DNA of 64,000 bases from Squalus acanthias (taxonomy: Eukaryota): positions 38,812,001 to 38,876,000 of the forward strand of contig CM059430.1 of NCBI GenBank assembly GCA_030390025.1, given 5' to 3'. The notes beneath the pieces are model-generated. The model saw only the letters and a program-made list of their open reading frames with translations. It did not search any database and was not told the DNA's origin. Position 1 is the stretch's first letter; the number at the start of each line of letters is the position of its first letter. This document shows positions 1 through 50,700 of the stretch, in pieces. A program made the translations under genes and the position numbers.

Positions 1-1935
1 CGCCCATGCGGAGGTGGTGCAGTCTACAGCCGGGCCTTCCAGGCCCAGAGCTGGTCGAAGGCGTCCTGCAAGGCCATCTGAAGTCTCCCGCACGGACACT
101 CAGCAGCTTTCCACCAGCCATGCTGCAGCCATTGGGCCAACACTTCGTAGGAGCACTGGAGTAGGCAAAGGCACTGTAACGAAGGGCCCTAAGGGATTGC
201 ACCAGGGTGAATAGCTAATATTGTTGTAAATATGTGTTCACTGATTATTGATAGATTTATTAATTGGCTTTGGATGATCTTTGGATGATTTTTGTGGTGT
301 CCCTCATTTCAGCTTTGCGCTGTGATATGGCCTGTGACAGGGATGGAATGATGGGGATGTGCTGAGCAACGGGGATCTGGGGTTTAATTTATTGGAACCG
401 CAGTCTGATGAGGCGGTCACGGACCGCCCTTCCAGAAGGCCGATTGACTGGCTGCCTCCTCCCTCGATCCTGTTCCTCCTCCTCACAGTCTTCCTCCTGA
501 GCTGGTCCTGCAATCCCTGCTTGCAAGGGCTGGGCCCTCATGATGGACAAGTTGTGGAGCATGCAGCAGACCACCATGAAATGGGACACCCACTTCGGCA
601 AGTACTGGAGGACTCCTCCCGAGCGGTCAAGGCAGCGGAACCATTGCTTGAGCACCCCAATGGTCTGCTCGATGATGTTCCTGGTTGCAGCATGTGGTTC
701 TCATTATATGAGTGCTGAGCAGGCGTGCTGGGGTTGCGGAGAGGAGTCATGAACCAGGTGGAGAGCAAATAGATAGCCCTTGTCTCCGACCAGCCAGCCA
801 CAAGCTTGATGTGGCTGCTGAAAGAGTGCTGGCACATCGGTCTGGTGCAGGATGAAGACATCGTGGCTGCTGCCAGGATAGCGGGCATTCACATTGAGGA
901 TTCGCTGTCTGTGGTCGCACAGCAACTGCACATGAAGTGAGTGGTAGCCTTAGCGGTTACAGAAGATGTCAGGATTTTTATGCGGTGCCCGCAAAGCCAC
1001 GTGGGTGCAGTCAATGGCGCCCTGCACCATGGGGAAGCCAGCTATCCTGGCAAAGCACACGCACATTCGTCCTGCTTCTCCTACTGTAGAGAGCCTCCGT
1101 GACCTCCCGGATGCAGCGATGGACGGCGAACTGCGAGATGTTCGCTATATCTCCTGTTGCAGACTGGAAGGAACCACTGGCGAAGAAATTGATGGCGACG
1201 GTGACCTTGACTGCCATTGAGAGAGCCGTGGTCGACCTGATCCAAGGCTCAAGGTCTGGTTGCAGACTTCGGTGACCACATCCTTGCTGAAGCGGAGCCT
1301 TCCAATGCACTGCTCCTCGCTTAATTGGAGGTAGAAGTGCTCTTGGAATACCCTCGGAGGGTAAGGCCTCCTGTTGAGAACCCTGATGGCCCTCCTCCTC
1401 CCTCTGGCCACATCTTGAATTTTTCTCACAGTAGATCCTGGAGGGCGAGGGAGAGATCGACTGCCAGTACAGCGCCCATTAATATAATGATGTGTAGCAC
1501 TTTGAAATTTTGTCAGAATAAATGTAACAAATTTTTAGTAGCCACAACACTCCTGATACGAAAGAACCTTTAAATGACTGAATTAAACTCTTGTACAATC
1601 ACAAACTGACAAGGAAGCAGTGAAACAGCACTAACTGGACAGCTGCGACTGATCCCATTAAATAGCGCCCCTGGAGCCGCCATCCGCCTGCTTCACGCCT
1701 CCTCTTCCTGTCGTTGTTGGGGCAAGGCTCTAAGGCAGAGAGCGATAATCAATTTGGCAGATCGGGCACTCAGTGAGCGTCACGATCTGCCTAGCACTAA
1801 AGCCCCAGGCTCCAACTGTTAGTGGCGGCACTAAGGGTTGACTGGATTCGGTGTGCGGCGCTGGATTCGCCTTGCTACTTCATTAGTGCCCCGTTAGCGC
1901 CCCCGTCAGGCGCTAACCAACCGAATTTCTCCCCC
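1..1935. mobile_element. PIF/Harbinger DNA transposon, right part (left end outside window)
   Basis: Frameshifted HARBI1-type transposase on the minus strand converges on the end of a plus-strand ORF (14..214). Terminal sequence ccgaatttctccccc at 1921-1935 (rc GGGGGAGAAATTCGG) resembles the other Harbinger TIRs in the window and is followed by aat. Confidence 0.85.
389..1479 (-). pseudogene. Harbinger DDE transposase (HARBI1-like), disrupted
   Basis: Pieces in shifting frames: VKVTVAINFFASGSFQSATGDIANISQFAVHRCIREVT; GAIDCTHV; QLLCDHRQRILNVNARYPGSSHDVFIL; GWLVGDKGY; LKQWFRCLDRSGGVLQY..VCCMLHNL; ends DRLIRLRFQ*. Likely ATG at 1479. Confidence 0.9.
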
Positions 1936-2370
1936 AATAAGTTATTCTCAAAGTCCACTGGCCTCCATTGTTTTAGACAGTACGGAGTACAGGAACAAGA
2001 GATGAGATAAAGTTTTTATTACAACCTGTCAAACAGGGCTGCAAATTATTAGAATATTGGAGTGACCAAATATGACAAGTTGCACTAAGCTTTCTAAAGG
2101 ATTCCCACTCTTGGGCATCTTTTCTAGTCACCGTCAGCACTTATTTGCACAGCGAAATTTGGATAGGATTGCCAACCCAAGGAACTGAATGTCTAACTGC
2201 AGGAACCATGTAACCCTTACAGAATAGAGGTGGGTAGGTAACAGTCAGTCTTTTGCAACAAAGCCAAACACAATAATTGGCCACCTACATGCCAACTTTG
2301 TCTGCATCTATTCAATTGCTGATTTTTAGATTGAGTTAATATTACCAGCCAAGCGAACGTGGTCACTTTT

Positions 2371-3235
2371 CGTAGAATCATAGAATCTTACAGCACAGAA
2401 AGAGGCCATTCGGACCGTCATGCCTGTGCCACCTCTTTGAAAGAGCTGTCCAATTTAGTCCCACGCCCCAGCGTTTTCCTCATAACCCTGCAAATTAGTC
2501 CTCTTCAAGTACATGTCCAATTCCACCACCCTTTCAGGCAGTGCGTTCCAGATCTTAACAATCCTCTGTGTGAAGAAATTTCTCATTTCCCCTCTAGTTT
2601 TTTTCCCCCAATTATTTTAAAGCTATGACCTCTGGTTACCGACCCACTTGCCAGAGGTAATAGTTTCTCCCTATTTGCTCTATCCAAATCCCTCATAATA
2701 TTGAATACCTTTATTAGGTCTCCCTTCGCTGCTCTAAGGAAAACAATCCCAACTTCTCCAATCTCTCCACATCAGACCTCCTTCATCCCTGGTATCATCC
2801 TGGTAAACCTCCTCTGTACGCTCTTCAAGGCCTTGACATCCTTCCTAAAGTGCGGTGCCCAGAACTGCACACAATACTCCAGCGGAGGCCTAACCAGCGA
2901 TTTGTAAAATAGCATGACTTCCTTGTTTTTGTATTCAATGCCCCTATTTACAAAGCCGAGTAGCCCATACGTTTTCTTAACCGACTTCTCAACTTGCCCT
3001 GCCACCTTCAAAGATTTGTGAATATGCATCCCCGGGTCCCTCTGTTCTTGCACCCCTTCAAAATAGTACCATTTAGCTTATACTGCCTCTCCACGTTGTT
3101 TCTCCCAAAGTTCATCACATCACACGTATCTGCATTAAATTGCATCTGCTATGTGTTTGCCCATTTCACCAATTTGTCTATGTCCTCCTGAAGTCTGCTA
3201 TTTACTACATTGCCAAGTTTTGTATTGTCTTTTTG
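2371..3235 (-). mobile_element. CR1 LINE 3' fragment
   Basis: [27 protein letters not shown] (CR1 ORF2 C-terminus) and a (TTCTATGA)-type tail at about 2371. Confidence 0.9.
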
Positions 3236-3249
3236 ATAATATCTACCAG

Positions 3250-4130
3250 GTTGCTAAAGATATGAAACAGTTGGGCTAAACAGAATTCTCTGAGGGACTG
3301 CTACACAGGTGTTATATTAAGATCAACTTCCATTTATCATTCCATAACATTTGTTTTCTGAGGAACTCATGTATTCAATTCAGCAACTTAACAGATTGCT
3401 GTAAGAGGCTAGTTTCTCAATGAGATGTGGATCTCATTTCTTTTGAATGTTGTGGAAACACCAAGAACAACAATTGACTTTGTTTGGAATCATTGCTGGA
3501 CACAACAGAAAGCATCACAAGTTGTCCATCTTTCTCTAGAAAAGGGGTCACAAAGACATTGGAAACGATCTAAAACCATCTTCCAACAGTACTTGGGATG
3601 TGTTCATAAATCACATACTTCAAAATTGACAGTCATTTTTTGAATCCGGTACATAGTGTGACAATATACTTCCCCATATTTTTGGTTGTCTGATCTTCCC
3701 CGTTATCCAAATCATTCTGGTTTCTGGAAATTGTTGCAGCATGTTTCATTAAACTAGGGCTCCGAGCCACTATCAGTACCTGGATAGGAGTGTGGCTCTG
3801 TGCAGAACTGAATATCATATACGTGATTTAAAGCATGTCAAGTCTGGAACTTCTGGCTGGTAACTAGCTTAACTACAAGTCAGCAAACTTCACACTGGAG
3901 GTGGTTCCAATTAGCACGGTCATACCAAATCTTGCATCTCACGTGCTTTCAAGGTACCCAAGCTGCAGACAGGCATGTTGAGATCTGCCAATCAGTTCTT
4001 TGCTGTGTGCATTCAGGTTATCAGAAGATTGGTCAATGCCAGATCTAACTAGGCATTCTCTCAAGTTAGAGTACAAACAAGCCACTTGGAGATCATTAGT
4101 GATCACAAAATACGAATGCACAAAGGCCAT
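3250..4130 (-). pseudogene. Highly decayed Gypsy-like LTR retrotransposon protease/RT-start remnant
   Basis: With frameshifts the minus strand reads PIQVL.DSGSEPSLM (aspartic protease DSG motif, about 3755-3790), then GEVYCH..MTVNFEVCDL, then MEVDLNITPV.Q.PQRI (start-of-RT-like motif, about 3285-3335). Confidence 0.45.
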
Positions 4131-9749: not shown

Positions 9750-9975
9750 GTTACACACCGTCCTAACACAAGACATATATTGCCATTCCTTCATTTTTGC
9801 TGGATTATAATCCTGGAGTTCCCTACTCAACACCGTTATGGGAACACTATCTCCACACGGACTGCAGTGGATCAAAACGGCTGTGGTCCACTACCACCTT
9901 CTTTGGGCAACTAGGGAAAGGCAATAAATGTGGCTTTGCCAGCATCTCTCCTATCCCATGAACAAATAATGAAAA
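9750..9975 (+). mobile_element. Old 3' fragment of the second LINE family (family B)
   Basis: Diverged match to the 3' end at about 32470-32690 (aatcctgga..gggcaactaggga..ggcaataaatg). Confidence 0.7.
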
Positions 9976-10519
9976 AGGAGTGGGAAAAATTTCTAGCCCA
10001 AATTTTTCATTTACAATAAGGAATCATGCCTGCCAACAGCAGCATATCGGAAAATTACAGGTAGTATCTGCAATTTTCCATCCCTTGAAATCAATAGATG
10101 GAAAATCATGGGCACAATATAGTGAGCTCAAGATATTCCCATTTTAAGAGTTCGGATGAGGGTTAGGAATCACCCAACTGTCCATTTTGCTTTTACAGCT
10201 CATGAGCAAATGTCTTTGCTGAAGTGTATGTCAACGTACCTTGAAATTACACTAGGTGTAATTACACTAGGCCAAATGCCTTACATGCATGCTATAACAA
10301 AATAGGAAGGGATTAATTACAGATGTGCAAGGTGGGATATCCTGGATTAGTTTCCGCTGTTGATGTGCCGGTGGCCAATTACACATCCGTTTCGTCCCCC
10401 CATACAATGTGCAATTGACACAGCTCTTGCTGTAGTGTAGGTGTAAAGCAGCAACTCATTTTCTGGGTGGGGGGGGAAGTAACTCGAGTTTTTTTTTAAA
10501 AAGGGATGCAGCACAGGTG

Positions 10520-29929: not shown

Positions 29930-30104
29930 GCTGATGTAGTAGATGGCAGGTAAAGTGGAGATGAGAGGGCCAATCCCTCAATGTGATAGTGAGTAGCAAT
30001 GTGGTGAGAGTGGCTTCCGAGGTTTCAAAAATGACCTGCAAGCTGCAGCCACTGAAATCTGTGGACAAAATGAAGTGAGCAAGACCCCACGAATTCTCAT
30101 GGCT

Positions 30105-32695
30105 TCAGGTCAAGTATGGGCAAGGAAACCTCCTGCTGATTACCATCGACCGCACTCCCTCAGCTGATGAATCAGTACCCCGCCATGTTGAACACATTGA
30201 GGGTAGCAAGGGCACAGAATATACCCTGGTTGGAGGGACTTCAATGTCCATCACCAAGAGTGGCTCGGTAGCACCACTACTGACCAAGCTGGCCAAATCC
30301 TGAAGGACATAGCTGCCAGACTGGGCCTGCGGCAGGTGGTGAGAGAACCAACACAAGAGAAAAACCTACTTGACCTCGTCCTCACCAATCTACCCGTCGC
30401 AGATGCATCTGTCCATGACAGCATTGGTAGCAGTGACCACCGAACAGTCCTTGTGGAGACGAAGTCCTGTTTTCACACTGAGGACACACTCCATCATGTT
30501 GTGTGGCACTACCACCGTGCTAAATGGGATAGATTCAGAACAGATCTTGCAGCTCAGAACTGGGCATCCATGAGACACTGTGGGTCATGAGCAGCAGTAG
30601 AATTGTATTCCACCACAATTTGTAACCTCATGGCCCGGCATATCCCTCACTCTACCATTAACATCAAGCCAGGGGACCAACCCTGGTTCAATGAAGAGTG
30701 TAGTAGAGCATGCCAGGAGCAGCACCAGGCATACCTAAAAATGAGGTGCCAACCTGGGGAAGCTGCAATACAGGACTACATGCATGCTAAACAGCAGAAG
30801 CAGCATGCTATGGACAGAGCTAAGCAATTCCACAACCAACAGATCAGATCAAAGCTCTGTAGTCCTGCCACATCCAGTCGTGAATGGTGGTGGACCATTA
30901 AACAATTGATGGGAGGAGGAGGCTCCATGAACATCCCCATCCTCAATGATGGAAGAGCCCAGCCCACGAGTGCAAAAGACAAGGTTGAAGCGTTTGCAAC
31001 CATCTTCAGCCAGAAGTGCTGAGTGGATGATCCATCTCGGCCTCCTCCTGAGGTCCCCACCATCACAGAAGCCAGTCTTCAGTCAATTCGATTCACTCCA
31101 CGTGATATCAAGAAACAACTGAGCGCATTGGCTACAGCAAAGGCTATGGGCCCTGTCAACATCCCAGCTATCGTGCTGAAGACTTGTGTTCCAGAACTAG
31201 CCGCGCCTCTAGCCAAGCTGTTCCAGTACAGCTACAACACTGGCATCTATCCGACAATGTGGGAAACTGCCCAGGTATGTCCTGTCCACAAAAAGCAGGA
31301 CAAATCCAATCTGGCCAATTACCGCCCCATCAGTCTACTCTCAATCATCAGCAAAGTGATGGAAGGTGTCATCGACAGTGCTATCAAGTGGCACTTACTC
31401 ACCAATAACCTGTTCACTGATGCCCAGTTTGGGTTCCGCCAGGACCACTTGGCTCCCGACCTCATTACAGCCTTGGTCCAATAATGGACAAAAGAGCTGA
31501 ATTCCAGAGGTGAGGTGAGAGTAACTGTTCTTGACATCAAGGTAGCATTTGACCGAGTGTGGCATCAAGGAGCCCTAGTAAAATTGAAGTCAATGGGAAT
31601 CAGGGGGAAAATTCTCCACTGGCTGGAGTCATACCTAGCACAAAGGAAGATGGTTGTGATTGTTGGAGGCCAATCATCACAACCCCAAGACATCACTGCA
31701 GGAGTTCCTCAGGGCAGTGTCCTTGGCCCAACCAGCTTCAGCTGCTTCATCAATGACCTTCCCTCCATCATAAGGTCAGATGTGGGGATGTTCGCTGATG
31801 ATTGCACAGTGTTCAGTTCCATTCGCAACTCCTCCGATAATAAAGCAGTCCATGCCCGCACGCAGCAAGACATGGACGACATTCAGGCTTGGGCTGATAA
31901 ATGGCAAGTAACATTCGCGCCACACAAGTGCCAGGCAATGTCTATATCCAACAAGCGAGCGTCTAACCACCGCCACTTGATATTCAACGGCATTACCATC
32001 ACCAAATCCCCCACCATCAACATCCTGGGGGTCACCATTGACCAGAAACGTAACTGGACCAGCAGCCACATAAATACTGTGGCTACAAGAGCAGGTCAGA
32101 GGCTGGGTACTCTGTGGCGAGTGTCTCACCTCCTGACTCCCCAAAGCCTTTCCACCATCTGCAAGGCGCAAGTCAGGAGTGTGATGGAATACTCTCCACT
32201 TGCCTGGATGAGTGCAGCTCCAACAACACTCAAGAAGCTCAACACCATCCAGGACAAAGTAGCCCACTTGATTGGCACCGCATCTACCACTTTAAACATT
32301 CACTCCCTCCACCACCGGTGCACCGTGGCTGCAGTGTATACCATCTGCAAGATGCACTGCAGCAACTCGCCAAGGCTTCTTCGGCAGCACCTCCCAAACC
32401 CGCGACCTCTACCACCTAGAAGGTCAAGGGCAGCAGGTGCATGGGAACACCTCACCTCCAAGTTCCCCTCCAAGTCACACACCATCCTGATTTGGAAATA
32501 TATCGCCGTTCCTTCATCGTTGCTGGGTCAAAATCCTGGAACTCCCTCCCTAATAGCTCTATGGGAGTACCTTTACCACAGGGACTGCAGCAGTTCAAGA
32601 ATGTGGCTCACCACCATCTTCTCAAGGGCAATTAGGGATGGGCAATAAATGCTGGCCTTGCCAACAACGCCCACATCCCTGCAATGGAAAAAAAA
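30105..32695 (+). mobile_element. 5'-truncated LINE family B (CR1/Jockey-group EN-RT) inserted in the Harbinger
   Basis: NLLDLVLTN..SDH (EN); NYRPISLLSIISKVME; [15 protein letters not shown] (RT); 3' end caattagggatgggcaataaatgc followed by an A-run. Confidence 0.9.
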
Positions 32696-35248: not shown

Positions 35249-35865
35249 GCTGCTATAAGGAAATCCAGGCTCACACTTCAAGTGATAATTAAGCTGAACA
35301 TTAACTGATTTCCTGTATATCAAATCTGCATTTTCAATGTGTAGACCTTCCATTCACATATAAGTATAATTTGTTGAGCTTTAAGACCATTAACCGATGT
35401 ACTGACTAAATTTGTGGTGAAATTATCAGTTTGAACACATTTTATCAAACAATGCAAAATCTGGTGCCTTTAGAAAATGTCTGTTTCCCTTACTGGTATC
35501 TACACTTGGGGAAAGAAGCACTGACCGTCAGTCAGTGCTTTGGCAGGATGCACATTAGACTATTTAATTTCAACCCAAAAAGGAAATTTGTTCAGTTTTA
35601 CAGTTTTGCTCAAAGGAAAAAGTACTTTTTTATTGAAAGTACACCTGTCATTTTATGGAAGAAAATATTAATTTCAGAATATTGGCCCTGTCTGCCCTCT
35701 CAGGTGGACAAAAGATCTCATGGCACTATTCAATATCCTGGCCATTATTTATCCCTCAATCAACATCACTGACAATAAAGTACAGTATCTGGTCATTATC
35801 ACATGGCTAATTGTGGGATCTTGCTGTGCGCAAATTGGCTGCCGCATTTCCTACATTACAACATT

Positions 35866-36187
35866 CTTCGACAGCACCTCCCAAATCTGCGACTTCTATT
35901 GACTAGAAGAACAAGGGCAGTAGGCACATGGGAACACCATCACCTGTGAATTCCGTTCCAAGTCACACACCATCCTGACTTGGAAATATATCGTTGTTCC
36001 TTCATCGTTGCTGGGTCAAAATCCTGGAACTCCCTACCGAACAGCACTGTGGGAGTACCTTCACCACATGGACTGCCACGGGTCAAGAAGGTGACTCACC
36101 ACCACCTACTCAAGGGAAATTAGGGATGGGCAATAAATGCTGGTCTTGCCAGCGACAACCACATTCCATGAATGAATAAACAAAGAA
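35866..36187 (+). mobile_element. LINE family B 3' fragment
   Basis: Matches about 32380-32690; acaaca on both flanks. Confidence 0.85.
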
Positions 36188-41858: not shown

Positions 41859-43222
41859 TTAATGTATAATTGTAGGTGTGTTATTCTCAAGGACTAGGGC
41901 TAATTGACAACAAATTGAATCCAAGTTACTTGCTGACCCTGCTTATTTGATGCACAACCATACTGTTAGCTACTGTGACAAATCCCACTGTACTGTTACT
42001 GTATATAATTAGAGGCAAAACTAGTTTAGCGTATCAATACAAATAAATACACTGCACTTTGTATAAATGCAAAACTAGGGAAAATAGAAAATGGTTACCC
42101 ATGCCCAGTGAGTCTATTTTCCAGAAGATGGCTTTTGTTTCTGCTTCCAGACAGTATTGATATGTTAAACCAAGAAGACCTCATTTGAATGGTGTCAACA
42201 CTCACCTGTAGATCATTCAACTTGGAGATGGAATGGTTAGATCAATAGAACCATTGATTTGCATTCCGTGCAGTTTAAAGGCTAATTGATCATTTAAGCC
42301 CATGACCCAAGACTGAGGAAGAGACCATACCATGAAAACATGGGAAATTATACAATCCAGTGTGAAATAGAATTGAAAGTGAAAGCTGGAGTGTGTTATG
42401 AAGTGTTGGCAAAGAAACAGACTACATTCACTGCTGTTAGGAGCAGTTTGTATTTTTTTATACAAAACAAATTATTTACTGCCGTCATTGTCCATAAGCC
42501 TGCGCTATTCATATGCCCTATTTGGTTAATTTCCGTAAATACATCTAGTTAATTCAGAAAATCTAGTTAATTCAGGATCTAAGCCCATTTTGCACATGGT
42601 GTCTTCTAGAGGGGCTTGGAGAGAAATAAAGTGCATTGGACAATTTGATCTAAGATCATGCAAGTGTTAAAGGGTACAAGAATTTTGCACATGGGTTTTT
42701 CAGAATCTTTTAACTTTCTTACTGTCCTCGAAACACTTAGGTTGGACTCCTTTAGTATAAGCTCGCTCCATAAAATCAGTGACACGGCCTCACGGTCTTT
42801 GAGGCTCTATAAAGAAAACTGCTCAATCCAGAAATTTAAAAAAAAAGCTGGAATTTGCCTACGTGTGTTTTTTAAATTCTTTCCTGGGATGTGGGCGTCG
42901 CTGGCAAGGCCAGCATTATTGCTCATCGCTAATTGCCCTTGAGAAGGTGGTGGTGAGCCGCCTTCTTCAACCGCTACAGTCTGCGTGGTGAAGGTACTCT
43001 CATAGTGCTGTTCGGGAGGGAGTTCCAGGATTTTGACCCAGCGACTATGAAGGAACGGCGATATATTTCCAAGTCAGGCTGGTGTGTGACTTGGAGGGAA
43101 CTTGGAGGTGATGGTGTTCCCATGCACCTGCTGCCCTTGTCCTTCTAGGTGGTAGAGGTTGTGGGTTTGGGAAGTGCTGTCGAAGAAGCCTTGGCGAGTT
43201 GCTGCAGTGCATCTTGTAGATA

Positions 43223-45624
43223 AAAATGAGAAGTCGCACAACACCAGGTTATAGTCCAACAGTTTTATTTGAAATCACGAGCTTTCGGAGCGCTGCTCCT
43301 TCGTCAGGTAAAGTGAAGGAATACAAATCAGCAAAGCATATATAGACAGAGAACAATGTGTAGCGTACAATGTCAGACGACTACAGTAAATCTTTCTGAC
43401 TGCCCTCCATCACACCTCGGCAGAGATACAATCAGGCCAGTCAGGAAGGCATTACATCAAAGACACAGCAAAATACAGCTAAGACAATGAGGTGGGGTCA
43501 CAGGGGGTCCAACGTGTCAAATGCTGCAATCTGTATGGTTAAGCTTTTTACTTTTTTTTAAAACTGGAAATCACATCTGTGAACAAGCCAACGACGACTC
43601 GAGTCTGGATGACTCTACGTCATGTAGCGTGACATGAAAGCAAGATCCCGGTTGAGGCCATCCTCATGGGTGCGGAACTTGGCTATCAGTTTCTGCTCGA
43701 TGATTTTGCGTTGTCGTGTGTCTCGAAGGCTGCCTTGGAGAACGCTTACCCCAGCTTCTGTCGCGACACTACAGACTTCTTACAGAAACTCAGCACCCAT
43801 GGACCAGTTGAACCAGGAACACTCCTTGCCACGATGGACGTATCGGCACTCTACGCCAGTATCCCCCACGATGACGGCATCGCTGCGACAGCCTCAGTAC
43901 TCAACACCAACAACAGCCAATCTCCAGACGCCATCCTACAACTCATCCGCTTCATCCTTGACCACAATGTCTTCACCTTCGACAACCAGATTTTTACCCA
44001 AACACACGGAACAGCCATGGGGACCAAATTCGCACCCCAATACGCCAACATCTTCATGCACAAGTTCGAGCAGACTTCTTTGCTGCACAGGACCTCCAAC
44101 CAACGCTGTACACCAGATACATCGACGACATTTTCTTCCTTTGGACCCACGGCGAAGGATCACTGTAAGGACAACACGATAACATCAACAGGTTCTATCC
44201 CACCATCAAACTCACCATGGACTACTCCTCAGAATCGGTTTCATTCTTGGACACACGAATCTCCATCAAAGACGGACACCTCAGCACTTCACTCTACCGC
44301 AAGCCCACGGACAACCTCACGATGCTCCACTTCTCCAGCTTCCACCCTAACCACGTTAAAGAAGCCATCCCCTATGGACAAGCCTTGCGAATACACAGGA
44401 TCTGCTCAGACGAGGAGGAACGCGATGGACACCTACGGACGCTGAAAGACGCCCGCGTAAGAACGGGATATGACGCTCGACTCATCGATCGACAGTTCCG
44501 ACGGGCCACAGCGAAAAATCGCATAGACCTCCTCAGAAGGCGAACACGGGACACAACCAACAGAGTACCCTACGTCATCCAGTACTTCCCCGGAGCGGAG
44601 AAACTACGCCATGTTCTTCGCAGCCTTCAACATGTCATCGATGACGACGAACACCTCGCTAAGGCCATCCCCACACCTCCACTACTCGCCTTCAAGCAGC
44701 CGCCTAACCTCAAAAGTACCATAGTTCGCAGCAAATTACCCAGCTGTCAGGAGAACAGCGACCACGACACCACACAACCCTGCCACGGCAACCTCTGCAA
44801 GACATGCCAGATCATCAACACAGATACCATCATCACACGTGAGGACACTACCCACCAGGTACATGGTACATACTCATGTGACTTGGCCAACATTGTCTAC
44901 CTCATACATTGCAGGAAAGGATGCACCGCAGCATGGTACACGGCGAGACCATGCAGACACTGAGACAACGTATGAACGGATACCGCGCAACAATCGCCAG
45001 GCAGGATTGTTCCCTCCCAGTTGGGGAACACTTCAGCAGTCAAGGACATTCAGCCTCGGATCTGCGGGTAAGCATTCTCCAAGGCGGCCTTCGAGACACA
45101 CGACAACGCAAAATCATCGAGCAGAAACTGATAGCCAAGTTCCGCACCCATGAGGATGGCCTCAACCGGGATCTTGCTTTCATGTCACGCTACATGACGT
45201 AGAGTCATCCAGACTCGAGTCGTCATTGGCTTGTTCACAGATGTGATTTCCAGTTTTAAAAAAAAGTAAAAAGCTTAACCATACAGACTGCAGCATTTGA
45301 CACGTTGGACCCCCTGTGACCCCACCTCATTGTCTTAGCTGTATTTTACTGTGTCTTTGATGTAATGCCTTCCTGACTGGCCTGATTGTATCTCTGCCGA
45401 GGTGTGATGGAGGGTAGTCAGAAAGATTTACTGTAGTCGTCTGACATTGTACGCTACACATTGTTCTCTGTCTATATATGCTTTGCTGATTTGTATTCCT
45501 TCACTTTACCTGACGAAGGAGCAGCGCTCCGAAAGCTCGTGATTTCAAATAAAACTGTTGGACTATAACCTGGTGTTGTGCGACTTCTCATTTTTGTCCA
45601 CCCCAGTCCAACACCGGCATCTCC
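43223..45624 (+). mobile_element. Penelope-like retroelement (RT plus GIY-YIG), 5'-truncated, with inverted terminal repeats of about 530 bp
   Basis: LATMDVSALYASIPH, GTAMGTKFAPQYANIFM, RYIDD, SFLDT..LYRKPTD, NIVYLIHC..WY.GET (GIY-YIG). 43223-43750 is the reverse complement of 45066-45594. 14-bp TSD gcatcttgtagata. Confidence 0.95.
45501..45545 (+). ncRNA. Minimal type I hammerhead ribozyme-like motif (mirror copy on minus strand at about 43272-43316)
   Basis: CUGACGA-aGGAGC agc GCUCC-GAAA-GC-UC-guga: conserved core, stem II, and tiny palindromic stem III, in a Penelope terminal repeat. Confidence 0.65.
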
Positions 45625-47360
45625 GCATCTTGTAGATAGTACACACTGCAGCCACGGTACGCCAGTGGTGGAGGGAGTGAATGTTTAAGGTAGTGGATGG
45701 GGTGCCAATCAAGTGGGCTGCTTTGTCCTGGATGGTGTCGAGCTTCTTGAGTGTTGTTGGAGCTGCACTCATCCAGGCAAGTGGAGAGTATTCCATCACA
45801 CTCCTGACTTGTGCCTTGCAGATGGTGGAAAGGCATTGGGGAGTCAGGAGGTGAGACACTCGCTGCAGAATACCCAGCCTCTGACCTGCTCTTGTAGCAA
45901 CAGTGTTTAAGTGGCTGGTCCAGTTAAGTTTCTGGTCAATTGTGATCCCCAGGATGTTGATGTTGGGGGATTCGGCAATGGTAATGCCATTGAATGTCAA
46001 GAGGCGGTGGTTAGACGCTCGCTTGTTGGAGATAGTCATTGCCTGGCACTTGTGTGGCGCGAATGTTACCTGCCACTTATCAGCCCAAGCCTGAATGTCG
46101 TCCAGGTTGCTGCATGCGAGCATAGACTGCTTCATTATCTGAGGAGTTGCGAATGGAACTGAACACTGTGCAGTCAGCAGTGAGCATCCCCACTTCTGAC
46201 CTTATGATGGATGGAATGTCATTGATGAAGCAGTTGAAGATGGTTGGGCCTAGGACACTGCCCTGAGGAACTCCTGCAGTGATGTCCTGGGGCTGAGATG
46301 ATTGGCCTCCAACAACCACAACCATCTTCCTTTGTGCTAGGTATGACTCCAACCAGTGGAGAGTCTTTCCCCTGATTCCCATTGACTTCAATTTTACTAG
46401 GGCTCCTTGATGCCACACTTGGTCAAATGCTGCCTTGATGTCAAGAACAGTCACTCTCACCTCACCTCTGGAATTCAGCTCTTTTGTCCATGTTTGGACC
46501 AAGGCTGGATCATCCACTTGACACCTTTGGCTGAAGATGGTTGCCTTGTCTTGCCTTGTCTTTTGCACTTGCGTGCTGGGCTCCGCCATCATTGAGGATG
46601 GGGATGTTCATGGAGCCTCCTCCTCCCATCAGTTTTTTAATAGTCCACCACCATTCACGACTGGATGTGGCAGGACTGCAGAGCTTTGATCTGATCCGTT
46701 GGTTGTGGGATCGCTTAGCTCTGTCTATAGCATGCTGCTTCCATTGTTTAGCATGCAAGTAGTCCTGTGTTGCAGCTTCCCCAGGTTGGCACCTCATTTT
46801 TAGGTACGCCTGGTGCTGCTCAGGCATGCTCTTCTACACTCCTTATTGAACCAGGGTTGGCCCCCTGGCTTGATGGTAATGGTAGAGTGAGGGATATGCC
46901 GGGCCATGAGGTTACAGATTGTGGTGGAAATCAATTCTGCTGCTGCTGATAGCCCATAGCGCCTCATGGATGCCCAGTTTTGAGCTGCAAGATCTGTTCT
47001 GAATCTATCCTATTTAGCACGGTGGTAATGCCACACAACATGATGGAGGGCGTCCTCAGTGTGAAGACAGGACTTCGTCACCACAAGGACTGTACGGTGG
47101 TCACTGCTACCAATACTCTCATGGACAGATGCCTCTGTAACAGGTAAATTGGTGAGGATGAGGTCAAGTTGGTTTTTCCCTTGTGTTGGTTCTCTCACCA
47201 CCTGCTGCAGGCCCAGTCTGGCAGCTATGTCCTTCAGGACTCGGCCAGCTCGGTCAGTAGTGGTGCTACCGAGCCACTCTTGGTGATAGACAATGAAGTC
47301 CCCCACCCAGACTACATTCTGTGCCCTTGCTACCCTCAGTGCTTCTTCCAAGTGGTGTTC

Positions 47361-47722
47361 ATAGAATAGAATAATAGAATGGTTACGGCACGGAAGACCA
47401 TTTGGCCCGTCGAGCCCGTGCCGACTCTCAGCTAATCCCACTCCTCTGCCCTTTTCCTGTAGCCCTGCAAATGTTTTTCCTTCAGATACTTAGCCAACTC
47501 CCTTTTTCAGGCAGTGCATTCCAGATCTTAACCACTTGCTGTGTAAAAAAGTTTATGTTGCCTTTGGTTTTTTTGCCAGTCACCTTAAATCTGTGTCCTC
47601 TGGTTCTTGACCCTTCTGCCAATGGGAACAGTTTCTCTCTCTCTACTCTGTCCAGACCCCTCATGATTTTGAACACCTCTATCAAATCTCCTCTCAATCT
47701 TCTCTGCTCCATGGAGAACAAC
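47361..47722 (-). mobile_element. CR1 3' fragment inserted in LINE B
   Basis: LFSMEQRRLRGDLIEVFKIM; flanked by gtgttca. Confidence 0.88.
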
Positions 47723-50700
47723 ATAGTGTTCAACATGGAGGAGTGCTGATTCATCAGCTGAGGGAGGGCGGTAGGTGGTAATCAGCACGTTTGACCTGAT
47801 GCCATGAGACTTCATGGGATCCAAAGTCAATGTTAAGGACTCCCAGGGCCACTCCCTGCCGACTGTATACCACTGTGCTGCCAACTCTGGTAGGTCTGTC
47901 CTGCCCGTGGGACAAGACATACCCAGGGATGGTGATGGAGGAGTCTGGGACATTGACAGAAAGGTATGATTCAGGGTGTTGCTTGTCTCGTCTGTGGGAC
48001 AGCTCTCCCCATTTTGGCACATGTCCCCAGATGTCAGTGAGGAGGACTTTGCAGAGTCAACTGGGCTGGGTGTGCTGTTGTCGTGTCCAAAGCCAGTGCT
48101 GGGTGGTCCGTCCTGTTTTATTATTGTTGTTTCTTGTAGCGGTTTGTTACAACTGAGTGGCTTGCTAGGCCATTTCAGAGGGCAGTTAAGAGTCAACCAC
48201 ATTGCTGTGGGTCTGGAGTCACATATGGGCCAGACCAGGTAAGGACGGCAGATTTCCTTCCCTAAAAGGACATTAATGAACCAGATGGGTTTTTACGACA
48301 ATCCAATCGTTTCATGGTCACCATTACTGATACTAGCTTTTTATTCCAGATTTATTTAATTAACTGCATTTTAAATTCCACAGCTGCCCTGGTGGGATTT
48401 GAACTCATGTCTCCAGACCTCTGGATTTTTAGTCCAGTAACATAACCACTATGCTACCGTTCCCATAATGTATGTATAACAATAGATCTGTTTGTTATTC
48501 ACAAGGCCTTCGGCTATTTGACAACAAATAAATTCCAAGTTACCATGTAACCTTTAGGCCTTAGCTGCAGGGGTAGAACATCTGGCTTGAAAGGGATGCA
48601 AGTTTCACTTATAAGATGTGCTAAGATTGTTGCAAGGAGGAATGTCTCATTTAAATATCCAAAAAACTACAACATAGAAGTGGCTGAGTTAAGAGATACC
48701 TGTCCCGTCTTCAGTACATTAGCAGTAAATGCTCTTGTCCCAGTTTTAAAAAAAAATATAGGTAACTACTTCGAAACACAAAATGCTTTCACTTTAGAGA
48801 CTACCTAACTTGAGACTGAAATTATGATTCAGCCCTTCCAAGCTTCAGTAAGATGCAACATGATTAATTCCTGTGCATCTGCCTGCTATTGTAATAAATA
48901 AAATGGGGAAAAAACCTGTAGTTCTCTGCACACTGGCAACTCTTGGAAATACATTATTGCAATGGAAATCATCTGAAAGAAACTCATCTCTATGGAAATA
49001 TTAATGCTGGGTTCTTCTCTGTAGTCTTGCATTCCATTGTACTAATGTTGTATAAATCTAAACTTTTTTTTACTCTAGGCAGCGATTATTTGCAACACCA
49101 GTGGGTTGGATCAGATTCTGATTGGTCCCCGTGGAGAACAACAACAGCCAACAGTTTGTCTGGAATATATAATTTGATCCTGTTTGCTGTAGGCAACCCT
49201 GCAATGTGCAACCTGATCCAGTGTTGTTAGTCAGCCTACAGGAAGTGGAAGTGTAGTTAAGTTTTATGAGGATCCTCTTATCTAGTGCTCAGCAATTATA
49301 ATTATAGTTATCCTTGGCTGGGAAAAGACTTTTTACTCTAATTAGTGAGTTAGTTACTTCTTTGGAGTTTTATGTTTGTTTCCCCCTTTTGGAAGTGATA
49401 AAAATTCTTTAATTCTGAATGACAGGTCTGTGTGTGGTGTGCAGGGTGCATGCGTGTATCCAACCTTCTGGCACACCAGTGAGCTCAAATTGGGGAGGCG
49501 CCGTTTACCATCTCGGCGTGTGGGAAGGGATTCACTAATTCATCCGGCTGGAAGAACATGATCCACGTCTAACAGGGGGGTGGGGGGGGAAAAGAGGGCA
49601 GGGGATGGAAATGTGATCTGTTCTCCCATCTGGATCACGTTCTTTCTCATTCCCATGGTTTGCTCCATGCTCCAACTCTCCCCCCCACGCAGAGTGCCTA
49701 ATCTTCTCCCCTCTCGAGTTCCCAAGCTGCTCTTCCTGCCCCCAAGAGTTCCTGACCTTCTCTCCCCCCCATCTCCAAGCTCCTCCAATCCCCTGACCTT
49801 CTCCACAGGGAGGAAAGTGTGGTTGAGGCTGCAGGCCTGCGGCTAGGCGCATGCGGGACCACTAGGTTCGTATGCGTGGTTCCGGTGGGGGACGGGACAG
49901 TTTAGGCCCGGCACACATGCGCATAAGACCCCTTACAAATAATCATTTACACACGAGAAAGGGCCAGTGTTATCTGGAGATTTTCAAGTTGAAAGGCGTT
50001 ATCTAATAATCTTAACAGGTGTGAAATTTTCTGGAAACTCAGCTAGCTCCTTTCAGAAAGAGATTACCTGGTATCATCTTTATCATTTGAATAAAGAGAT
50101 CCTTCACACAGATCTGTCAAGAGTAGGGATGCCATTTCAGACAAAGGCTCATTCTCCCCTTCATCTTAACAAGCATCAATTCTGCACAAAACCACTGAGC
50201 GCAATGAAATACTAACTGTAATTGGAGGCAAAAAGAACTAAACTCCCAAGAATGTATTAGTATATCCTATTTCCAATCCTCTGCCACACCAAATAGAAAA
50301 GTCCCCAGTGTTAAGTTTAAAAAAAAACACACCCCCATAAAAAATTCATGCTCAAATCATGGAAATTTGTACTTGGTGAGTAATTACCATTCAAATTACT
50401 CACCAACAAAGTCACAGTTAAACCAGAGCACCCCCCAACACACAATGACATTCTACAAAATCATTTTAGGTCTCCTTCCTTGTTTGACTTCAAATATATA
50501 TTTTTCCATTTGATCACATGGAGATGCAAAGCACGGTGACAAATAATTTAAATGTCCTTGGTAGTTTTTATTTTCCACTTCAGGACTATTATAAAATGAG
50601 ATTATCTTGCTGGTTAATATGCAGCTACTAGACAAAATTACTAGAATTCCATTTAATTGTAGCCCCACAAGTCAAAAGAATGAACAGTATTTTTTTAACC

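Follow-up and report, generated by a model that had tools for sequence, protein, structure and literature searches.

The window analysed here, 64,000 nucleotides of Squalus acanthias (assembly GCA_030390025.1, contig CM059430.1, positions 38,812,001 to 38,876,000 of the forward strand), contains on its minus strand a decayed member of the elasmobranch Zenon LINE (long interspersed element), a 3.3-kb family with one open reading frame (ORF). The copy starts with GGG at 48464, followed by a tRNA-like head (Table 1), and in the family to which it belongs this head, the body behind it, the frame for endonuclease and reverse transcriptase (RT) and the tail are one unit. We put at about even the chances that RNA polymerase III (Pol III) would transcribe elasmobranch Zenon from a tRNA-derived head fixed at its 5' end.

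The locus is composed of four collinear pieces of the family majority sequence (1-800, 794-1652, 2086-2970 and 2958-3313). A first-pass annotation of the sequence had treated 42870-48464 as one single-ORF element, possibly autonomous, which has to be corrected: the copy is broken by two insertions and a 433-bp deletion, its reading frame is further disrupted by several deletions of 1-18 bp relative to the majority, and an intact single ORF was seen only at the level of the family. About 2.8 of the 5.6 kb are Zenon, and with its ORF partly deleted and interrupted this copy cannot be autonomous. The A-box-like and B-box-like motifs, in contrast, lie on the minus strand where they had been placed (48456-48446 and 48406-48396), and this copy lacks 13 bp from the duplicated hairpin that separates them. 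It also holds true that the head runs into the endonuclease with neither a tail nor a duplication in between, except that the first conserved endonuclease codon is found at 48047 and not at about 48030. No ORF1 is present between the 5' end and the endonuclease (417 bp in the window copy, 443 bp in the family). Its absence had been thought unusual, but all Zenon and Rex1 elements are described as lacking ORF1 (PMC13343379).

Table 1. Layout of the nested Zenon copy and its later insertions (positions in the window)
Feature	Position	Strand	Remarks
Decayed Zenon copy, overall	42868/42870..48464	-	About 2.8 of 5.6 kb is Zenon; about half is two later insertions
tRNA-like head, family positions 1 to about 95	48380..48464	-	Motif reading, Rfam, tRNA alignment; same 5' start amid unrelated flanks
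A box-like motif TAGCATAGTGG	48446..48456	-	Starts at element position 9, tRNA position 8
B box-like motif GAGTTCAAATC	48396..48406	-	Motif reading and consensus comparison
230-bp body, near-invariant between shark and ray consensuses	48151..48379	-	Its 3' end is the breakpoint of short derivatives
Leader, A-rich, then Arg-codon-rich	48048..48150	-	Open in the endonuclease frame at family level; without in-frame ATG
APE endonuclease, 5' part	47726..48047	-	Frameshifted: 18- and 17-bp gaps and decay
Later insertion, 364-bp 3' end of a presumed CR1-type LINE	47362..47725	-	TTCTA-type tail; 7-bp duplication on flanks; foreign to the Zenon family
Endonuclease 3' part and linker	46507..47361	-	433 bp of family ORF deleted at 46506/46507
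Reverse transcriptase, remaining part	45625..46506	-	Pfam RVT_1 E 2e-18
Later insertion, presumed 2.4-kb Penelope-like retroelement	43222..45624	+	536-bp inverted repeats (98.5%), 13-bp target duplication; foreign to the Zenon family
ORF end	42932..43221	-	Alignment to family majority
Stop codon (42931-42929), stem-loop of the 3' untranslated region, A-rich tail	42868..42931	-	Portion retained by all short derivatives

The insertion at 43222-45624, which we take to be Penelope-like, carries a plus-strand RT that matches RVT_1 below the cut-off (E 3.9e-5). The one at 47362-47725 is presumably of CR1 type, judging by its translated C-terminus; it does not match the young CR1 family (L227) that served as a control. 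The window holds three further Zenon copies, all 5'-truncated and on the plus strand, at 30083-32695 (92.9% identity to the majority), 35864-36184 (86.9%) and 9750-9976 (74.2%). Deletions of 12-18 bp between short direct repeats are common in Zenon copies (within 47726-48464 and at many other loci), and some recur at one place. A 13-14 bp deletion in the endonuclease dominated the matches to the window query, yet it is present in only one of ten other full-length loci; its interpretation as the mark of a non-autonomous subfamily was rejected because of the bias of that query and because the deletion can be attributed to microhomology.

The head in the full-length family

The majority sequence of 38 copies is 3314 bp long and comprises one frame of 973 codons (positions 330-3251), a stop codon, a short stem-loop and poly-A; poly-A tails are likewise present in the family copies. 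Median divergence from the majority is 3.3%, a value for the best copies only. In the near-intact copy P0005, PF03372 and PF14529 (endonuclease) and PF00078 (RT) exceed the Pfam cut-offs. Exact 24-mers of the body and of the endonuclease occur at least 5047 and at least 5582 times in the genome, respectively.

Three queries bear on the connection between head and ORF. With a query covering head and endonuclease, which itself favours matches that span the junction, all 39 non-self loci among the 40 best matches cross it, with the same GGG start amid unrelated flanks. Of 29 non-self loci obtained with the head by itself, 25 continue into the ORF, three pass straight to the tail and one ends at position 345. 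The endonuclease protein yielded at least 97 matches, from which the 40 copies with the longest open frames were taken: 34 of these reach position 324 or further upstream (one is interrupted by an insertion), nine extend into the first 12 bases, and the other six, one of which ends in an assembly gap, have no common alternative upstream sequence by eye. The head is therefore a constant component of the full-length family, as the first-pass annotation had supposed, and the full-length copies without a head or with an ORF1 that it had considered as a counter-indication did not turn up, no alternative 5' end being present among the 40. In addition, a variant of the head is linked to a variant of the tail in full-length copies (12/13 versus 4/14, Fisher P 0.0013; two mixed copies excluded), a P value that is optimistic, as the sites were chosen post hoc from 18 variable columns.

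The resemblance of the head to tRNA is modest in profile searches and clearer in direct alignment. Rfam reports a sub-threshold match to tRNA-Sec (24.7 bits, E 0.16, 48391-48458) and, for the head of copy L201, a weak one to tRNA (18.9 bits, E 0.32), and ARAGORN calls no tRNA in the head. Aligned with tRNA genes of the same genome, the head scores 53.5 with tRNA-Gln and 49.0 with tRNA-Ser, compared to means of about 25 for shuffled sequences; as donors these two types, which the comparison covered, score alike. In the alignment, the 5' end of Zenon lies a single base upstream of tRNA position 1. The head holds two tandem anticodon-like hairpins, and in one short derivative (L336:1074-1263; G000:C1, near 4.05 Mb) the 21-bp unit of the duplicated hairpin has grown into a tandem array, a SINE-head minisatellite (SINE, short interspersed element). 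At G000:C21:3.34-3.41 Mb and C889, the genome also contains a tandem array of alternating tRNA-Gln(CTG) and tRNA-Gln(TTG) genes with a unit of about 1.2 kb (278 matches to the pattern in the whole genome), as well as a large cluster of tRNA-Ser(AGA) genes. Measured against the definition of SINE2 elements, the long form possesses a head with A and B boxes, but with 3.3 kb and an endonuclease-RT frame it is neither short nor non-coding.

The sequence itself is not new, and a catalogued structure was one of the counter-indications named in the first-pass annotation: SquAca_Zenon-1 (Supplementary Table 2 of PMC13343379, Genome Biol Evol 2026) has 3314 characters, and its first 400 nt, to which our reading by eye of the published consensuses refers throughout, equal our majority. 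The Zenon family, its lack of ORF1 and the headed sequence are therefore already known from that source, according to which Zenon in sharks, rays, coelacanth and hagfish is always without ORF1 and with poly-A. The head, however, goes unremarked there: the words 'tRNA', 'Pol III', 'promoter' and 'start codon' do not occur in the main text, nor does 'tRNA' in the supplement, and as far as these texts go neither the head nor the missing ATG, the missing T runs or the short derivatives are described. Among the matches listed are seven shark and ray consensuses, representing five species; all open with a tRNA-like head, and three of them, shark consensuses other than SquAca_Zenon-1, carry the canonical B box GGTTCGAATCC. 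The five species retain both boxes at conserved spacing, the stem of the intervening hairpin is inverted in some lineages relative to others, and the body is better conserved between species than the head. Two hagfish and one coelacanth Zenon are headless and begin with an unrelated T-rich sequence. Because all shark and ray consensuses are headed, whereas the Zenon elements of hagfish and coelacanth and the derivatives in Lepidoptera are not, the head was probably gained in the shark-ray lineage.

Zenon is also distinct from the CR1 elements that share its genome. The nearest library proteins to its ORF are unnamed and 34-41% identical, and in a tree of 30 RT sequences, which included no named Zenon reference, it stands apart from the co-resident CR1 (100/99) and beside relatives of 36-42% identity. 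The canonical CR1 traits, an esterase ORF1 and a microsatellite tail, are absent in Zenon and present in the control L227, whose ORF1 is of the GDSL type and whose identity to Zenon is 25.6%. This control belongs to a very young CR1 family (L227-L232, e.g. G000:C4:160822587-160828787) with members 99% alike, an intact ORF2 of 1002 aa and a GDSL esterase ORF1. The closest relative at the DNA level is found on a metagenome contig (L247:949-3919; 36.8% protein identity), a T-rich single frame of 990 codons that contains 20 TTTT runs and has no pair of A and B boxes in the approximately 950 bp upstream of it.

Short derivatives

Short elements joining the head to the 3' tail, which the first-pass annotation expected to result from internal deletion, are abundant in the genome. 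A junction pattern gave 169 exact genome matches (reversed control: 0), and two targeted searches yielded 53 short loci with 15 junction types, seven of them with 4-12 copies each. When 30 loci were taken in chromosome order from a body pattern, 17 were long, extending into the leader and ORF, and 13 were short. The latter join a position between 322 and 356 to the last 75-175 bases through 11 different junctions without any foreign tail, and most short forms retain a few bases of the leader that is otherwise found in the LINE only. Their heads differ by 2.8-5.1% from the long form of the same genome, the long forms of different species being much further apart by eye. These derivatives show the SINE2 pattern of head, body and LINE tail with several dispersed copies per junction, and head-to-tail joints in contigs of four public runs demonstrate their presence in those other samples as well. 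Medium-sized internal deletions (685|2944 in L349, 549|2723 in L351 and 1013|2904 in L355) bridge the long and short forms. The simplest reading is that the short forms arose by repeated deletion from the headed LINE, and that some of the products were then amplified in trans. The shortest junction type, which has its own diagnostic bases and is the most diverged (5.1%, versus 2.6-2.8% for long copies), may go back to the donor SINE itself.

Possible transcription and translation of headed Zenon

These observations can be combined in the following scenario. In a shark-ray ancestor, a headless Zenon LINE would have become joined to the 5' 325 bp of a tRNA-derived SINE. TFIIIC on the internal A and B boxes would direct Pol III to start at position 1, and the polymerase, meeting no T runs, would be able to read through 3.3 kb into the A-tail and the flank. 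Translation of the uncapped RNA would then begin at a non-AUG codon of the leader, with the conserved body as its probable guide. Because the RT would grip the 3' stem-loop, deletion products keeping the first approximately 325 and the last approximately 75-170 bases would be working SINEs at once, copied in trans.

On the sense strand, the 3.3-kb majority contains no TTTT, compared to 14, 11 and 9 runs of A, C and G, and each of the 38 decayed copies contains between none and two. A background of 49 LINE frames (from 80 metagenome loci; frame of at least 600 aa, match to Zenon, no N; the co-resident CR1 was added) carries TTTT throughout, with 2-45 runs per frame, so that Zenon is the only one of 51 frames without it. 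The observed/expected ratio of TTT in the Zenon frame is the lowest of the 51 (0.44, median 0.98), and the frame has few Phe codons, mainly TTC. This depletion of TTT has P values of 0.01 and 0.0005 under two codon nulls and of 0.18 under a dinucleotide null. The scan for Pol III terminators that the first-pass annotation had proposed thus finds no TTTT on the sense strand, but the lack is not significant when composition is taken into account: since only about 1.8 runs are expected, it permits transcription by Pol III and does not prove it. T-run depletion was accordingly dropped as a proof of Pol III, weakened as it is by the CR1 control, and the low T content could be a product of selection or merely of host composition. 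Outside Zenon, ARAGORN, run on 20 of the 80 metagenome loci, found no tRNA in them, a scan of the long-ORF metagenome loci for box pairs found none other than in shark Zenon, and the body motif had no match in either the metagenome or the viral collections.

As to the start of translation, the first Met of the 973-codon frame is residue 287 and no in-frame ATG lies upstream of the endonuclease. A start at the ATG of family position 358, combined with a -1 frameshift, was considered. It was rejected because this ATG lies outside the frame in 100 of 105 copies, is missing from more than half of them (present in 46/105) and is replaced by ATA in contigs of two of four other organisms. The leader may instead be translated from a non-AUG codon, because it is rich in Arg and thereby resembles the N-termini of 6-50 residues of most relatives, which start with a called Met. 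Four predicted host proteins of sharks (P0004, P0009, P0023 and P0024; storkhead-box, aldo-keto reductase, SVEP1-like and LRRC32-like) contain pieces of the Zenon ORF with 70-86% identity; these are probably artefacts of gene models, possibly exonisation.

Several points weigh against Pol III transcription and translation without cap and AUG. According to reviews (PMC5786205, PMC10886601), LINEs are units of RNA polymerase II (Pol II), and Pol III confines elements to at most about 1.3 kb. Given its codons, the Zenon frame is expected to contain just 1.7-1.9 TTTT runs, so that their absence (P 0.10-0.17) is not significant by itself; the co-resident CR1, which bears an ORF1, is also depleted against the same shuffle (5 versus 11 runs), and just four background frames out of 49 are equally poor in T (<0.23), most of them being much richer. 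The B box of S. acanthias Zenon deviates from the canonical form at two places. Translation is difficult for an uncapped RNA that lacks an AUG, and neither a ribozyme match in the Rfam searches nor an unusual fold (fold z 0.57), which would support a structure similar to an internal ribosome entry site, was detected. No fully intact frame was found in the actual copies read, the longest comprising 844 aa. Nor is there a convincing target-site duplication around the 19 full-length loci read (10 and 9, two of the 10 being duplicates), therefore the status of the element as a unit rests on shared ends and linkage. The case for Pol III, moreover, has been built entirely from assembled sequence. 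On balance, we regard Pol III as the main source of transposing Zenon RNA with no more confidence than we would deny it. For the entire chain of events, i.e. an autonomous coding LINE that has owed its Pol III transcription to a captured SINE head ever since the shark-ray ancestor, has purged T runs from its 3.3 kb to pass terminators, has its uncapped RNA translated without AUG and gives rise to new SINE families by single deletions, our confidence is tentative and falls somewhat below even.

The most serious competitor is a captured head with another job, such as binding of TFIIIC, RNA structure or 5' protection, in an element whose body or leader contains an internal promoter from which Pol II makes the full-length RNA, as in other LINEs. 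LINEs and bipartite elements derived from them are held to be Pol II units (PMC5786205), and T runs missing within the limits of chance, a CR1 that is relatively depleted as well and a body that is more conserved than the head across species would all be in keeping with it. We nevertheless consider it rather unlikely in view of the retention of both boxes and their spacing in five species, the coincidence of the 5' end with the tRNA start and the position of Zenon as the sole TTTT-free frame among 51. It is also conceivable, with a still clearly lower probability, that expression is split: Pol III would make the RNA to be reverse-transcribed into the genome, and the protein would stem from capped Pol II read-through of copies in host genes and act in trans via the 3' stem-loop. 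Such a division would account for the head, the absent T runs and the heavy load of trans-mobilised elements (13 of 30 loci short) without cap-independent translation. An early in-frame ATG would, however, still be missing, and the four endonuclease differences that were read by hand in contigs of other organisms are all synonymous, which suggests that the copied RNA is selected for coding, as under cis preference.

Two further explanations deny that the LINE owns its head. The long form might be a chimera that forms repeatedly when the RT jumps from LINE RNA to the abundant RNA of an independent SINE. The higher divergence and the diagnostic bases of the shortest junction type are what would be expected of such a SINE, but the long copies and all five species share one fixed junction between head and leader, head and tail are linked in long copies, no headless 5' untranslated region was found among them, and the short forms have many junctions, most with leader bases known only from the LINE. 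For recent copies a chimera is thus largely refuted and very improbable, and may fit only a single ancient origin. A chance SINE beside a truncated LINE at the window locus, finally, would agree with the lack of a target duplication bracketing the element; as the same arrangement is common to thousands of copies (at least 5047 by exact body 24-mers), this explanation is refuted with next to no residual doubt.

Comparison with known elements

By textbook accounts, LINEs are coding elements transcribed by Pol II and SINEs are non-coding elements transcribed by Pol III, which is deemed too restricted to make RNAs that are long or translated. A vertebrate LINE with several thousand copies and a conserved candidate tRNA promoter lets this division of polymerases be tested directly. 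If Pol III transcription is true, headed Zenon would represent a natural Pol III mRNA, a natural case of translation independent of cap and AUG, and a reverse route of SINE origin, in which SINE-shaped elements would arise repeatedly by one deletion and not by fusion of head and tail. Even if Pol II transcribes the element, repeat libraries of sharks and rays should merge the SINE-like repeats and the Zenon LINE into one family.

R2 and other LINEs bearing ribozymes likewise have a single ORF and uncapped RNA without a standard start, which is released by self-cleavage from Pol I or host transcripts. Shark Zenon differs from this type, as Rfam finds no ribozyme in it.

Pol III promoters on retroelements other than SINEs appear to be known only for short non-coding terminal-repeat retrotransposons in miniature (TRIMs), among the sources available. 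The TRIMp3 elements Cassandra, Helenus and Ajax (PMC10886601) resemble what is proposed for Zenon in having Pol III promoters derived from small RNAs; they are, however, of the long terminal repeat type, non-coding and 0.3-1.3 kb long, and autonomous partners would, in the author's expectation, depend on Pol II. A single sentence in PMC5786205, the sole basis of our comparison, mentions RTE-1_DAn and relatives (Repbase) as LINEs with a tRNA-like sequence matching many SINE2 heads, as in Zenon; these elements belong to the RTE clade and are mentioned there merely as a source of nuisance matches. Our literature search, with entries of Repbase, Dfam and SINEBase and subscription papers outside its reach, retrieved no account of a tRNA head on shark Zenon, and in the available parts of PMC7245038, PMC5499810, PMC6685494, PMC4824008, PMC3747384, PMC11481361 and bioRxiv 10.1101/443036 headed shark Zenon is not described. 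For the known shark SINEs (SacSINE1/Deu, HE1/V and CmiSINE/CORE), the tails described are L2-2_CM, CR1-4_DR-like or HER1 and not Zenon (PMC5499810, PMC3747384).

Combinations of tRNA head, body and Zenon tail that are mobilised by Zenon have been reported as ZenoSINE/Fritillar (PMC6685494) and as the bivalve HCD-SINEs (PMC11481361), and the bipartite RTE and Vingi SINEs (PMC5786205) similarly consist of head, body and LINE tail and are mobilised by a single-ORF LINE. In all of these, as described, the head sits on the non-coding piece and the autonomous partner is headless, unlike in shark Zenon. A parallel to the short forms is Persaeus SIDE of the lepidopteran Zenon (PMC6740152), a LINE that likewise gave rise to successful internally deleted derivatives retaining 5' and 3' ends. 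According to that source Persaeus has neither tRNA homology nor a Pol III promoter, whereas the deletion products of sharks are SINE-shaped because their parent LINE already has a head.

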